A stretch of 34,793 bases of DNA from Reclinomonas americana ATCC 50394 (GCA_048213135.1 PS015471.1:44583-79375), one strand, 5' to 3'; counted from the stretch's first letter, positions 6,784 through 27,244 are shown. Made by a program: numbers and translations. Notes: generated by a model not told the origin, from the sequence alone.

Positions 6784-7677
6784 ATGGTGCGTGTGTGGTT
6801 TGTGCGCGTGGCGCCCGACGAAGAAGACGAAGGAGAGCAAAGCAAAAGGGAAGAAGAAGATCGCTTTGTCGCCGAACTGCGCAGGCAGTGGTCATCGTCG
6901 TTGCCGCCACTGGAGCAGGCGCGCGTGGTGCCTGTGCTGGCCACACGCTACCTATTCGACGAACCACCGAGTGCACAAGAGGTGGAGGATGTGATGCGGC
7001 AGCACGACGGACTCGTGTTGACCAGTCGCCGTGGTGTGGTCGGCTTTGCGCACTGGCTGCACCACGTGGGCTCGGTGCCGGCCGAGTGGCCCGTGTTTGT
7101 GGTGGGACCCAGTTGCGTCGCCGCATGATCATCATCGCTTTTTGTTTCCACTCCCCCCACTCACAGCTGGTAAGCAGCGACCGGCGCCGCGGCACAAGAG
7201 TTGCTGCACATCGATGCACAGCGCATGGTCGCTGTCACCGAGGGTGGCGCGAGTGCGCTGGCCGAGGCCATCATTGGTCGGGCGGCGAGCGCAGAGCCAG
7301 CTCGTCGTCTGCTCTTCCCGTGCGGACAACGCCGGCGCAACGAACTGGTCGACTTGCTGACGGCCGCCGAGGCCGCCACCGTCACCGAGCTGGTGGTCTA
7401 CGACTGCACACGCCGACTGTCGGCTGCAGAGGCCGGCATCAATGAAGAAGCCACGCCGCCCGACTGGCTGGTGGTCTTTAGCGGAGCTTGCGCCGAGGCT
7501 GTGTGCGATCTGCTTGGCGAGTGCGATCGGGTGCGTGGAGTCGTCGCTCTTGGACGCACCACCGCCGACGCGTGTCGTGCACTGGGTGTGTGGCCACCCG
7601 ACAGGATCCACACCGCCGCGTCGCCGTCGCCTGCAGACGTGGCGGCCGCACTTGTCCGTCCGTACGCGACTGAGTGA
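6784..7677 (+). CDS. UROS: Uroporphyrinogen-III synthase (HemD/UROS family), 2 exons
   Basis: Motifs VVPVLAT, DGLVLTSRRGV, VFVVGPT|TG, LLFPCG, RRNEL, ELVVY, PDWLVVFSG, VALGRTTA, AASPS. Intron 7112-7177 restores the frame. Confidence 0.8.
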
Positions 7678-7772
7678 ACGAATTTCCTCTTGTCATGCTT
7701 GTCTCACTTTGTCGCCTCGTTCCACCAAGAGCGTTGCTCTCCTCCTGCTCCTCCTCTGTTTCCCTCTCCTTC

Positions 7773-9094
7773 ATGGCCTCTGCTGCTTCATCGTCGTCTG
7801 GGGACCCTGCGCCTGCCGGCCGTGAAGGGCGTGGTCGCGGTGGCGGTCGTGGTGGTGGAGGTCGTCAAGCGCCGCCCCCAAAGAAGGCCGTTGCCACCTT
7901 TTCGTACCCACAGCAGGAGAGTGCCGAGGGTGTGCTGGTGGACATTGGCATCAACCTGCAGAACAAGCAGTTCCGCGGCGATGAGCTGAAGGTGGGAACA
8001 GAGAGTGCATGCATTCGTGTGTGCAGCTCGCTGACATGCTGGCGAGTGCAGGTGCTCGAGCAGGCGGCAGTGGCCGGTGTGCGTGGCATTGTCATCACTG
8101 GCACCTCGGTGAAGAACTCGCAAAAGGCGTTGCGCGTGCTGCGAGAGTACGGCACCGCGGCTGCGGAGATGGTGTGTGTGAGAAAACAACACCACTGTCA
8201 CCTCCCACTACATCGCTCACTGCGTGCACGACTATGCAGGGTCTCCAACTGTTCTCCACGGCCGGCGTACACCCACACGATGCGTCGTCGTGCGACGGCG
8301 ACACGCTGCGACAACTGACCGACATGCTGCGGGAGCCGAATGTGGTCGCCGTCGGTCCGTGTCTCTCCTTCTCTTCTTCATCGGTCTCCCGTCTCACCCG
8401 CTGCGTGCTGTAGGCGAGTGCGGACTGGACTTTGATCGCATGTTCAGTCCACGGGAGGTGCAGCTGGAGTGGTTTGAGCGGCAAGTGCGATTGGCGTGCG
8501 AGTTGCGCAAGCCGCTGTTCTTGCACGAGCGTGCGGCCGGCGCCGACTTTGTCGCCATCCTCGACAAGTTCAGCAGCGCCGAGTTGCCGCCCGTGTGTGT
8601 ACACTGCTACACGGGCACGGACGAGGAGCTGCAGGCGTACCTCGATCGCGGCTTCTACATTGGTATCACGGGATGGATTTGCGATGAGCGACGCGGCACG
8701 CACTTGCTCGAGTCTGTGAAGCGCATTCCGCGCGACCGGCTGATGATCGAGGTTGGATGTTGTCTCGCCCTCCTCCCCTGTGCATGTGTTCCCTCACCGC
8801 CTCGTCGTGCTCAGACGGACGCGCCGTTCTTGATTCCGCGCAACATTCGCCCCAAGCCCAAGTTCCACCGCAACGAGCCTGCTCTGCTGCCGTTTGTGTG
8901 CCGCATGATCTCCGAGGCTCTGGGCATGTCGTTCGACGAAGTTGCGTTCTGTGTGCACGGCGCACCGAGTCGAGTGGCCTTTCCTCATTTCACCGTTCAC
9001 AGGTGGCCACGATGACCACGGAAAACGCCGAGCGTTTCTTCGGCGTCAGCATCGACCGTGGAATCAGTCCCGCTGCGGCTGCTGCCGCCACCGT
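7773..9094 (+). CDS. TatD-family metal-dependent nuclease with RGG-rich N-terminus; 3' end in gap
   Basis: [74 protein letters not shown]. Five GT-AG introns. An in-frame upstream ATG lies at 7695. Confidence 0.93.
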
Positions 9095-24186: not shown

Positions 24187-24994
24187 GTACGTGTGACGCA
24201 CGTGCGCGCGCGTGTGTGTGTGTATGTGGGCAAGCACCCACCAACGCCACCGCTNNNNNNNNNNNNNNNNNNNNNNNNNNNNNNNNNNNNNNNNNNNNNN
24301 NNNNNNNNNNNNNNNNNNNNNNNNNNNNNNNNNNNNNNNNNNNNNNNNNNNNNNNNNNNNNNNNNNNNNNNNNNNNNNNNNNNNNNNNNNNNNNNNNNNN
24401 NNNNNNNNNNNNNNNNNNNNNNNNNNNNNNNNNNNNNNNNNNNNNNNNNNNNNNNNNNNNNNNNNNNNNNNNNNNNNNNNNNNNNNNNNNNNNNNNNNNN
24501 NNNNNNNNNNNNNNNNNNNNNNNNNNNNNNNNNNNNNNNNNNNNNNNNNNNNNNNNNNNNNNNNNNNNNNNNNNNNNNNNNNNNNNNNNNNNNNNNNNNN
24601 NNNNNNNNNNNNNNNNNNNNNNNNNNNNNNNNNNNNNNNNNNNNNNNNNNNNNNNNNNNNNNNNNNNNNNNNNNNNNNNNNNNNNNNNNNNNNNNNNNNN
24701 NNNNNNNNNNNNNNNNNNNNNNNNNNNNNNNNNNNNNNNNNNNNNNNNNNNNNNNNNNNNNNNNNNNNNNNNNNNNNNNNNNNNNNNNNNNNNNNNNNNN
24801 NNNNNNNNNNNNNNNNNNNNNNNNNNNNNNNNNNNNNNNNNNNNNNNNNNNNNNNNNNNNNNNNNNNNNNNNNNNNNNNNNNNNNNNNNNNNNNNNNNNN
24901 NNNNNNNNNNNNNNNNNNNNNNNNNNNNNNNNNNNNNNNNNNNNNNNNNNNNNNNNNNNNNNNNNNNNNNNNNNNNNNNNNNNNNNNNNNNNNN

Positions 24995-27244
24995 TAACAG
25001 AGAGGCACACAGAGTGCAGCATACAAAAAGAGTCCACGCAACGCTTGACATCCTCATTGGTGTGTATCTGATCGTCAAAGGAAAAGTCGATCTCCACCGG
25101 CGCGATTTCCTGGTGTGCAGGTGAGCGACAACAACGGCACACTCCGTGACATTCACAAAAAAACACACATACCGGATCGGCAAGTGGTGACGAGTGGAAG
25201 AACGGGTGTACCAGTGCATCCTCCACCGTTATCCGATCGGCGGGATTGAAGGTGAGCATGCGCGACAACAGATCCAATGCTGCAATAACAAGAACAGTTT
25301 AGCAGGAAGGTTCGACAGCAGTCAGACGCACACATGCGCCAACTCACCCTCCTCCGAGGCATCGGGCAGCACCTCGCGCCAGCTGTGCGGTGCGAAATTC
25401 TCCTGCCGCAACAACCAGTTCCGTGCTTCCAGCGACCCAATGTCGGCAATGTCTTCGTCCTTGGGCTTGCCCAGCATTTGCATAATCAGCGTCAGTTGGT
25501 GTACGTCTGCGACACACATTCGTCGTCAGCAACCATTCAAAGCAAGCAGGTTAGGAGTTGGAGAGAGAGAGAGAGCGATAGACGCACGTGAGGTGCCGGG
25601 GAAGAGCGGATTCCTCAACAACAACTCGGCAAAAATGCACCCCGTCGCCCACATGTCGACGGGGAAGCTGTAGTGCTTCCACTGCAGCAACAGCTCGGGC
25701 GCACGGTACCAGCGTGTCTGCACACGTGGAATGTTTACAGTCACCGTCAGTGTCGCTGACCCACTACAGTGGGCGGTGACCTCTGTGTGTGACGAACCAC
25801 AACATACTGCGTCTTCTCCAGCGAAAACAACATGCCCTGGTGCTCCGTCTCCGAGTGCCGTGCCAAACCAAAATCGGCAATCTTCAGTGAGCAGTCGCTG
25901 CTCACCAGCAGATTACCGGGCTTCCTGCACGATGGAGAGAGTGGTTAGTGAAGCCTGCATCGTATGTGTGTGTGTGTGTATATATGCACGAGGTGCCGCC
26001 GCCACGCAACAAATCACGATGTACAATGTTGCACGTCTTCAGGTACTTTAGGCCAATCAGCAACTGATGCAGGAAGAACTGCACGTGCGCCTCGGTGAGC
26101 GTCTGCTCTGACCGGATCACCCATTGCAGATCCGTGTCCATCTTGTCAAACACCTGCATCATCGTGACGGCGGTCGTCAACACAAGCACAACAATCACCA
26201 CGACTGTGGACAACTGAACGCACCAAGTAGACCTCGTTGAACTCGGCATACGACGGCACCTTCATCAGCTCTCGCAGCGCGATAACGTTGGGATGGCGAA
26301 TGTTGCGCAGCAGCTTGACCTCACGCAGCAGCCGCTTGCCCTCCAGCACCTTCTCAAAGGGTCTCTGTACGCGCTTGATGGCCACCTCCTCTCCCGTGAT
26401 ATTATCAACTGCCGCCACCACCACACCATACCCTGTTTTCATCCCCCCAAAAAACACACGTGTGCACAGAGTGAGGGGGGGATGGATCCAGGTGACACGA
26501 GTGTGCAGAGNNNNNNNNNNNNNNNNNNNNNNNNNNNNNNNNNNNNNNNNNNNNNNNNNNNNNNNNNNNNNNNNNNNNNNNNNNNNNNNNNNNNNNNNNN
26601 NNNNNNNNNNNNNNNNNNNNNNNNNNNNNNNNNNNNNNNNNNNNNNNNNNNNNNNNNNNNNNNNNNNNNNNNNNNNNNNNNNNNNNNNNNNNNNNNNNNN
26701 NNNNNNNNNNNNNNNNNNNNNNNNNNNNNNNNNNNNNNNNNNNNNNNNNNNNNNNNNNNNNNNNNNNNNNNNNNNNNNNNNNNNNNNNNNNNNNNNNNNN
26801 NNNNNNNNNNNNNNNNNNNNNNNNNNNNNNNNNNNNNNNNNNNNNNNNNNNNNNNNNNNNNNNNNNNNNNNNNNNNNNNNNNNNNNNNNNNNNNNNNNNN
26901 NNNNNNNNNNNNNNNNNNNNNNNNNTTTCCGCAGACAAGGCAGAGGAAGAGGAAGAGCACGCCATTTCACACACACTGGCACACCGCGAGGAGAGACACG
27001 CGAAGAGAGCACGCTGATGCGCACAGATTCCAACCCCACCCCTCGTGCATGTGTTCATCTGCGCACGTGTGCATTCTCACGCTGACACGGGCGTGCTCCA
27101 ACAGCACAAAAAACACGGACATCACACACACACGCGCACGCGCGCTCACGTCCACACACAAGCTCACACACACATGCGCATGCACGCACCAATGTCGGGA
27201 AAGTAGAACTCGCCCGCCCTCTCAAACTCTGGCAGCTCAGCCAT
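24995..27244 (-). CDS. MAP kinase (CMGC) with TQY activation motif; internal gap, 3' end in gap
   Basis: [89 protein letters not shown]. Probable first exon [18 protein letters not shown] at 27244-27190. Confidence 0.92.

Follow-up and report, generated by a model that had tools for sequence, protein, structure and literature searches.

Must an exon end in G for the intron behind it to be recognised? The question is raised by a stretch of 34,793 bases of Reclinomonas americana ATCC 50394 (GCA_048213135.1 PS015471.1:44583-79375; the window below is the whole of this stretch), in which many predicted introns begin with GTTGCG. The original prediction, made for positions 7109-26012, held that these donors (5' splice sites) lack the G at the last exon position (-1) that nearly all ordinary donors, with G at intron position +5, possess. 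It explained this by a shifted register of recognition, and saw in it a relief for the coding sequence. We re-examined these claims with gene models, homology and pairing counts. All counts come from this single 35 kb window, and the tests are post hoc on the window from which the idea came.

Donor class and the last exon base

Introns were called with our own Viterbi gene finder, which combines models of length, intron content and three-periodic coding sequence with an acceptor matrix and a branch bonus, and which was self-trained on Pfam-anchored open reading frames (ORFs). Three sets of donors were compared. In the donor-blind set (87 introns), any GT could serve as donor and no donor score was applied. 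In the intron-only set (82 introns), donors were scored on positions +3 to +8 with two matrices, the exon bases being ignored. The curated set is the intron-only set after homology correction, and holds 85 donors (84 introns and one donor without acceptor). The -1 base played no part in donor choice in any of the three. All donor calls are predictions; they were checked exon by exon against Pfam profile coordinates and PDB chain numbering.

Class A was defined by G at +5 (n=55), and class B by T at +3, G at +6 and no G at +5 (n=25). Class A represents about two thirds of the 85 donors and class B about 29% (25/85). Eighteen class B donors read GTTGCG, and 16 of these GTTGCGT.

The link between the -1 base and the donor class is confirmed in this window. 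In the curated set, G was found at -1 in 47/55 class A but 5/25 class B donors (Fisher p=2e-8); in the donor-blind set, the figures were 41/52 and 5/20 (p=5e-5), with 2/12 for GTTGCG donors. Comparing +5G with GTTGCG donors, the Fisher test gave p=1.0e-4 (donor-blind), 1.0e-6 (intron-only) and 1.6e-8 (curated). The predicted count of 18 GTTGCG donors, 16 of them without G, was reproduced exactly over the whole window, but only 11 of the 18 lie within 7109-26012. As had been claimed, G occurred only at 16069 and 22163, the -1 bases being eight A, six T, two C and two G. The estimate that roughly nine in ten +5G donors follow a G was right in direction and too high: we counted 41/52 (79%) donor-blind, 43/53 (81%) intron-only and 47/55 (85%) curated, and 22/29 for the five +5G hexamers that had been named.

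Over the window, G precedes 924 of 4246 GT dinucleotides (22%). Ordinary donors are enriched in G relative to this background (p=1e-23), whereas GTTGCG donors are not distinguishable from it (2/18, one-sided p=0.22). Because the background is this low, GTTGCG donors are better described as having no preference for G than as avoiding it. The same donors are enriched in A at -1 (8/18 against 18% background, p=0.009) and in CA at -2,-1 (6/18 against 7.4%, p=0.0014).

Homology checks of the junctions

Seven ordinary junctions were exactly contiguous by Pfam coordinates, all with G at -1:

6103: L7Ae profile 57 to 58
8172, 8355 and 8752: TatD profile 53/54, 89/91 with a split codon, and 201/202
18918 and 19456: HSP70 profile 98/104 and 207/214, unaligned end residues being counted
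23576: GNT-I profile 199/201 with a split codon

Homology moved three donors, to G/GTGAGA at 19213, G/GTACGA at 23761 and G/GTTCGT at 25797 (here and below, the slash marks the exon-intron boundary); the finder had placed them at 19189, 23779 and 25803. The corrections at 23761 and 25797 lean in part on motifs that we take to be conserved, and the donor removed at 25803 was a false member of the shifted type. A 60 nucleotide (nt) intron at 7992-8051, missed by the finder, was added after the homology check. Pfam searches at E up to 5 gave no match for eight short exons or exon pieces, and PDB searches gave none for 18467-18535, 18648-18707 and 9003-9092.

Ordinary donors without G at -1 do occur (8/55). 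In the kinase gene, a GTGCGT donor follows C (CTCAC/GTGCGT, 25507-25587, minus strand), and the spacing at this junction matches what we take to be that of MAP-kinase sequences.

The 18 GTTGCG donors are listed below. The donor-blind model picked 12 of them and the intron-only model 16. On the minus strand, the donor is at the higher coordinate.

883-948, minus: intron, donor AGCA/GTTGCGTGC, 66 nt, phase 1; donor-blind call; in-frame stop if retained
1066-1146, minus: intron, donor AACT/GTTGCGTTG, 81 nt, phase 1; added by hand
1595-1651, minus: intron, donor CAGT/GTTGCGTCG, 57 nt, phase 2; donor-blind call; stop if retained
3783-3857, minus: intron, donor GCCA/GTTGCGTCG, 75 nt, phase 1; intron-only model (the donor-blind run took 3852); in-frame TGA if retained
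4371-4429, minus: intron, donor GGAT/GTTGCGTAT, 59 nt, phase 0; donor-blind call; length not a multiple of three
7112-7177, plus: HemD intron, donor CCCA/GTTGCGTCG, 66 nt, phase 1; stop if retained
8941-9002, plus: TatD intron, donor CGAA/GTTGCGTTC, 62 nt, phase 0
11720-11787, minus: ankyrin/Kelch intron, donor GAGA/GTTGCGATG with A at +7, 68 nt, phase 0; donor-blind call; length not a multiple of three
16069-16130, plus: intron near the 3' end of the Nucleotid_trans gene, donor AGTG/GTTGCGTCG with G at -1, 62 nt; donor-blind call
18538-18649, plus: intron of the Hsp110-like gene, donor CACC/GTTGCGTTT, 112 nt, phase 2; intron-only model (donor-blind run: 18577)
19847-19923, plus: intron of the Hsp110-like gene, donor GCCA/GTTGCGTGT with A at -1, 77 nt, phase 1
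20208-20287, plus: intron of the Hsp110-like gene, donor ACCT/GTTGCGTCA, 80 nt, phase 0
22091-22163, minus: pyrophosphatase intron, donor AGGG/GTTGCGTTA with G at -1, 73 nt, phase 2
22511-22585, minus: pyrophosphatase intron, donor CACT/GTTGCGTCT, 75 nt, phase 0; intron-only model; stop if retained
25036-25042, minus: putative donor in the 3' part of the kinase gene, AAGC/GTTGCGTGG, called from sequence; the intron enters the N run 24255-24994
25925-26010, minus: kinase intron, donor ATTT/GTTGCGTGG with T at -1, 86 nt, phase 2; splits the Leu codon of HRD-L-KPGN
27912-27979, minus: intron, donor GACA/GTTGCGTGT, 68 nt, phase 1; donor-blind call; stop if retained; no homology
30366-30425, plus: intron, donor TGCA/GTTGCGCGC with C at +7, 60 nt, phase 0; donor-blind call

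Three of these junctions are exact by homology. At 26010, the last upstream residue corresponds to position 123 of the Pkinase profile and the first downstream residue to 125, with one split codon between them. At 19847, the exons are contiguous in Pfam HSP70 (profile position 318 falls on residue 104 of the 106 in one exon, and 325 on residue 4 of the following exon). At 22163, they are contiguous in PDB 6c45_A, query residue 53 matching chain residue 51 and residue 3 of the next exon matching 56. For 22163 and 26010, the same protein results if both cleavage sites move by one base, and homology cannot fix the cleavage base. Introns starting with TT and cut one base later were rejected, since both ends would then be non-canonical.

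Other junctions are bracketed less tightly. The junction at 7112 agrees with HemD to within two residues: the Pfam HEM4 match stops at profile position 79 on the last upstream residue and picks up again at 94, sixteen residues downstream of the junction. The exon upstream of 8941 ends at position 239 of 253 in the TatD profile, and at chain residues 240-256 in two PDB TatD-family chains aligning to its last residue; the downstream exon is too short to score. The exons around 20208-20287 align to yeast Sse1 (2qxl_A) at 331-407 and 418-543 in different frames, therefore an intron of length 2 modulo 3 is needed there, the exact donor not being fixed by homology. The exons flanking 18538-18649 are too short for Pfam or PDB, and the spacing of N-terminal motifs across this intron agrees only with what we take to be typical of Hsp110 sequences.

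A few calls lean on splice signals and coding potential. The intron 1066-1146 shows ACAG, a pyrimidine run and a branch-like CACTGAT, and splicing it out continues the reading frame found downstream. The predicted minus-strand genes 1864-1091 and 1045-284 are probably a single gene, joined in frame by this intron; once they are joined, the "stop" at 1091 falls in the intron and the "start" at 1045 in an exon. The intron 16069-16130 (CTCAC, pyrimidine run, CAG) has no homology match, and its unspliced frame is open to 16221; it is the least certain of the donor-blind calls. For 22585, the donor-blind alternative is 22591, 6 nt upstream and also preceded by T. Retention of 30366-30425 keeps the frame, and this call depends only on its CTCAC...ACAG end and on coding potential.

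A frequent heptamer in ordinary introns

GTTGCGT is the commonest donor word of the window (16/85, about one intron in five). The class A consensus, G/GT(G/T)(C/T/A)GT, is degenerate, and its commonest hexamers are GTGTGT (9), GTGCGT (8) and GTGAGT (7). T at +7, which lies outside the class definition, was found in 22/25 class B and 17/55 class A donors; T at +6 was found in 39/55 class A donors. The hexamer GTTGCG is not enriched as such, with 43 copies on both strands (27 of them in 7109-26012) against 36.5 +/- 5.3 in shuffled sequence. The heptamer is enriched, with 19 copies against 8.4 +/- 2.8, a number reached in 0/100 shuffles. Of the genic copies of GTTGCGT, 17/18 are on the sense strand and none is in a predicted sense exon, while the six sense-exon copies of GTTGCG all have C or G at +7 (Fisher p=2e-4).

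The other seven class B donors read GTTTCGT (twice), GTTCCGT, GTTACGT, GTTACGC, GTTGAGT and GTTCTGT. Three of them have G at -1, and several are ambiguous:

5006-5076, minus: donor GTCC/GTTACGCCT; donor-blind and intron-only models
5225-5483, minus: donor CCAA/GTTGAGTGT; both models; a long intron of 259 nt, less certain
12610-12680, minus: donor AGAT/GTTTCGTCT; donor-blind and intron-only models
13622-13698, minus: donor CGAG/GTTCCGTGT; C/GTGTGTGT, 6 nt downstream, is an alternative
17417-17482, plus: donor TGTG/GTTTCGTGA; donor-blind and intron-only models
21944-22012, minus: donor TGCG/GTTACGTAC, pyrophosphatase gene; both models; read-through meets TAG after four codons
30580-30643, plus: donor TGGT/GTTCTGTGT; donor-blind and intron-only models

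By all the features compared, class B introns are ordinary major (U2-type, GT-AG) introns that differ from class A only at the 5' splice site. Median length is 71 nt in class B and 69 nt in class A, and composition is alike. The 3' end is CAG or TAG in 25/25 class B and 53/54 class A introns, and a branch-like YTVAY lies within 7-55 nt of the end in 20/25 and 45/54, respectively. A U12-type identity was rejected: no class B heptamer is GTATCCT, and the 3' regions show CTCAC, CTGAC or CTGAT as in class A.

Two copies of the heptamer lie outside the donor list. One, at 13650-13656 (minus strand), is inside the predicted intron 13622-13698, 42 nt past the donor, and adjoins a branch-like CACTCAC; as it is only 35 nt from the 3' end, it is not itself a donor. 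The other, at 6704 (plus strand), is 80 nt upstream of the HemD start codon, with TGTAG 54 nt further on (6704-6757). An intron of the 5' untranslated region was considered there and rejected on account of a purine-rich interior unlike that of other introns.

A proposed shifted register of U1 pairing

In the mechanism that we favour, the 5' end of the U1 small nuclear RNA (snRNA) would pair one base further into class B introns. The intron G+1 would take the usual place of the exon G-1, opposite C9 of U1; U+2 would be the single mismatch; and U+3, G+6 and U+7 would stand in for U+2, G+5 and U+6. The last exon bases would pair, where able, with U10 and G11, hence CA/G. Since such pairing would use the intron G+1 while cleavage stays before GU, the last exon base would be free of selection for G.

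The register originally predicted, in which +1 G acts as -1 G and +3 T as +2 T, fitted every test that we ran, including +7 T, the CA before the boundary and the number of U1 pairs. With a U1 5' end of the human type, AUACUUACCUG (PMC4856993), the mean number of pairs for class B donors is 3.96 in the canonical and 6.80 in the shifted register, the latter being the better in 23/25. Class A donors average 7.40 and 4.73 pairs, respectively, and the shifted register is the better in 4/55. The -1 composition of the shifted class is far better described by the class A composition at -2 (log-likelihood -35.5) than by that at -1 (-58.1). The enrichment of A at -1 and CA at -2,-1 is what pairing with U10 and G11 in the shifted register predicts; CA followed by the intron G rebuilds the classical CAG.

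Several points weigh against this reading. Only 3/18 GTTGCG junctions are exact by homology and 6/18 donors were missed by the donor-blind model. The human-type U1 is an assumption, and the organism's own may differ. Class B duplexes with the assumed U1 are weak (mean -2.05 kcal/mol against -6.36 kcal/mol for class A). The core at +4,+5 is GC in 18/25 class B donors, as against 14/55 for the matching +3,+4 of class A (p=1.5e-4), and this favoured core leaves C+5 unpaired with a standard U1; GTTGAGT occurs once and GTTAAGT never, though both should bind a standard U1 better. A shifted copy of class A would also be far less uniform than class B is. The -1 composition of the shifted class is not separable from background either (-35.5 against -37.1), and class A shows no corresponding preference for CA at -3,-2 (3/55). 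Finally, the evidence consists of sequence pattern and statistics, gathered post hoc in one window. On one reading of these points, a site mismatched at +2 tolerates a single best core and needs extra exon pairs; on the other, the reader of GTTGCGT is not the standard U1 5' end.

Altogether, we put the chance that class B is recognised one base further into the intron, most likely by the U1 5' end, at about even. Both the role of U1 as the reader and the register, as opposed to another factor, as the cause are our inference from these patterns.

Alternative explanations

The main rival to the register shift is a dedicated reader, distinct from the standard U1 5' end, that would recognise GTTGCGT as a word. 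It could be a protein, a U1 with lineage-changed positions 5-6 or a further U1 variant with complementarity to GUUGCGU. Such a reader would contact intron bases only, and the exon base would therefore be free. The near-invariance of the heptamer (16/25 class B donors) and the prevalence of a GC core that is not the best partner of a standard U1 speak for it, as does the fact that C is also the commonest +4 base of class A (22/54). To our knowledge, however, the U1 5' end is almost universally conserved, and the upstream enrichment of A and CA is what the standard U10 and G11 would select; we consider a dedicated reader unlikely, if worth keeping in mind. A related and somewhat less probable view holds that two fixed 5' splice-site modes exist side by side, with GUUGCGU (about a fifth of introns) read by a lineage-changed U1 or a second U1-like RNA. 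Under a lineage-changed U1, the best partners may be G/GUGCGU and CA/GUUGCGU. Alternatively, G+1 and U+2 could pair with C8 and A7, with a single bulged U at +2 or +3 and with G+4 to U+7 in the pairing places of +3 to +6. This bulged register offers as many intron pairs as the shifted one, and class B donors with G at -1 (5/25) do pair +1 with C8 in the minimum-energy duplex. In human, PMC4856993 (Table 3) assigns a bulge at +2/+3 to 54 to 68 of 201,541 sites. The exon bases argue against it: G at -1 should be favoured as in class A, owing to the G:C stack beside G+1:C8, but was found at the background level, in 2/18 GTTGCG donors against 47/55 ordinary ones, and CA at -2,-1, which is enriched (6/18), would stand unpaired opposite U10 and C9. 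We regard the bulge as improbable.

Could the pattern be an artefact, with GTTGCG donors mis-called by eye or by the gene finder, or a chance association? The finder did make errors that homology then repaired (19213, 23761, 25797 and the missed 7992-8051), one of them creating a false class B donor, and several class B donors other than GTTGCG are ambiguous. Against this, a model that knew only GT put 12/87 donors on GTTGCG, whereas 1% of all GT begin this hexamer (p=1e-10). Pfam or PDB numbering fixes three junctions exactly, 24/25 class B introns in the table used below for intron phases break the frame if retained, and the -1 base was never used in choosing donors. An artefact is thus very improbable. 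Still more so is a single mobile intron family (introners) carrying its own 5' end. The identical 5' heptamer of 16 introns would be expected from it, but we rejected this origin on the intron interiors of this window, which are no more alike between class B introns (local alignment score 7.86) than within class A (8.61) or between the classes (8.12).

Coding constraint

The further proposal, in which the intron contributes the G wherever the codon is unable to and thereby frees the coding sequence, found no support. Intron phases 0/1/2 are distributed as 30/16/8 in class A and 11/9/5 in class B (p=0.63). Among the 11 phase-0 class B donors, two have G, six could have it synonymously (CAA, GAA, AGA, CCT, ACT, GCA) and three could not; this table predates the correction of 25803, by which a phase-0 donor of class B became one of class A. 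Since most phase-0 sites without G could carry it silently, the missing G is simply not selected rather than forced by the codon. It is true that in this table 14/20 class B donors without G stand where a G would change the amino acid, e.g. the TT/G Leu codon of HRD-L-KPGN at 26010. Nevertheless, phases that do not differ between the classes, and 6/9 phase-0 sites without G being able to take one synonymously while class A has G in 26/30 phase-0 donors, make it doubtful that class B exists so that introns can sit where a codon cannot end in or contain G. Coding freedom, as in HRD-L-KPGN, looks like a consequence of the class rather than its demonstrated cause.

Gene content of the window

The window is compact eukaryotic nuclear DNA, with a GC content of about 59% outside eight N runs of 20-933 bases each (3,679 bases in total: 1865-2797, 9095-9618, 10722-11347, 13904-13973, 21026-21376, 24255-24994, 26511-26925 and 33388-33407). 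As these runs interrupt several genes (HEAT, the TatD end, ankyrin/Kelch, the Hsp110 end, the GNT-I end and the kinase ends), some introns and gene ends are missing. Genes are tightly packed on both strands, as judged from six-frame ORFs with Pfam matches and our own gene models:

284-5558, minus: two HEAT-like genes
5665-6416, plus: L7Ae-family gene
6784-7677, plus: HemD
7773-9094, plus: TatD
9619-13851, minus: BTB/ankyrin/Kelch gene
14213-17965, plus: Nucleotid_trans gene, then a gene of no named family
18224-21025, plus: Hsp70-superfamily (Hsp110-like) gene, whose best solved relative is yeast Sse1
21383-22639, minus: inorganic pyrophosphatase
22712-24254, plus: GNT-I glycosyltransferase
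25043-26432, minus: protein kinase

Three further genes have no Pfam matches. A comparison of exon 14555-15160 with a protein atlas gave scores of at most 0.80, to bacterial clusters only, and no lead. No snRNA or other RNA family was found in the window with Rfam at gathering thresholds, hence no U1 gene, and ARAGORN found no tRNA.

Introns number about 1 per 230 coding bases. They are mostly 55-110 nt long (median about 70 nt), of the GT-AG type, and end in CAG, with CTCAC, CTGAC or CTGAT mostly 10-40 nt before the end. Three genes have a first or second intron far longer than this norm: 5798-5998 (201 nt), 18259-18465 (207 nt) and 5225-5483 (259 nt). The predicted intron 9800-9888 (minus strand) ends in AAG rather than CAG or TAG; its junction, AHKE/VLVARS, presumably matches BTB domain spacing. 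Runs of (GT)n, (CA)n or (TC)n occur in many introns (6103-6189, 9800-9888, 19213-19318, 28973-29056 and others), including TC x16 at 19234-19266 within the intron 19213-19318. Gene models are ambiguous at 4177-4255, 23756-23785 and 29613-29640, because repeat runs offer several frame-compatible GT donors. A perfect (GA)23 microsatellite lies near the right end, at 34723-34769.

Implications and comparison with known systems

If the shifted register holds genome-wide, a register of U1 pairing that is tiny in human would be a major donor class here, built on a single heptamer. It would offer a natural system in which to study how the spliceosome holds the cleavage site while U1 binds one base off, and it would mean that the register, rather than splicing itself, demands the G at the exon end. 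If instead two modes exist side by side, the shifted register, so far a rare oddity of human genes, would become one of the principal ways in which introns are defined. In practice, gene finders with a single donor matrix would misplace GTTGCGT junctions, as our own did at several sites.

In a literature search on the motif and on shifted-register splice sites, which covered titles and abstract openings and left supplements and subscription papers outside, none of the papers listed reported such a genome-wide donor class, and none of those listed for the motif dealt with splicing. Some known systems resemble class B in part. In ordinary 5' splice sites, exon and intron pairing compensate for each other, the -1G depending on intron positions. 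As here, donors without -1 G then have an unusually strong intron part; GTTGCG, however, matches none of +3 to +6 canonically and is not a stronger site in the same register. U12-type introns share with class B a long, near-invariant word on the intron side of the donor and the lack of an exon consensus. They carry an RTATCCTT donor and a branch site TCCTTAAC near the 3' end, whereas class B has neither, and has ordinary ends, lengths and composition.

Closer parallels come from other registers of U1. The bulge +2/+3 register is said to have been described by Roca et al. in 2012, and Roca and Krainer reportedly listed only a few dozen shifted sites in 2009. Bulge +2/+3 sites read GUU...GU, with the equivalents of +5G and +6U one base further in, as in class B; they keep the -1G:C9 pair, for which GTTGCG donors show no preference. 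According to PMC4856993, the shifted register is experimentally established for rare human sites, e.g. ACA/GUCAAGUAUA (Table 2), and all non-canonical registers together account for about 2% of 201,541 human sites (Table 3). As described there, human shifted sites and class B both have a GU cleavage site and no -1 G (an A in the tested ACA/GUCAAGUAUA), both have +6 G and +7 U in place of +5G and +6U, and both gain U1 pairs when moved by one position. They differ in frequency, the human sites being rare while class B supplies 25/85 donors and one heptamer 16/85. In class B, +3 is always U, only +2 is mismatched and the core is GC instead of AA. The human register is experimentally established; class B consists of predicted donors. 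On the points by which a shifted site is recognised, class B has more pairs in the shifted register in 23/25 donors and +7 T in 22/25, and its GTTGCG donors show no preference for G at -1 (2/18).

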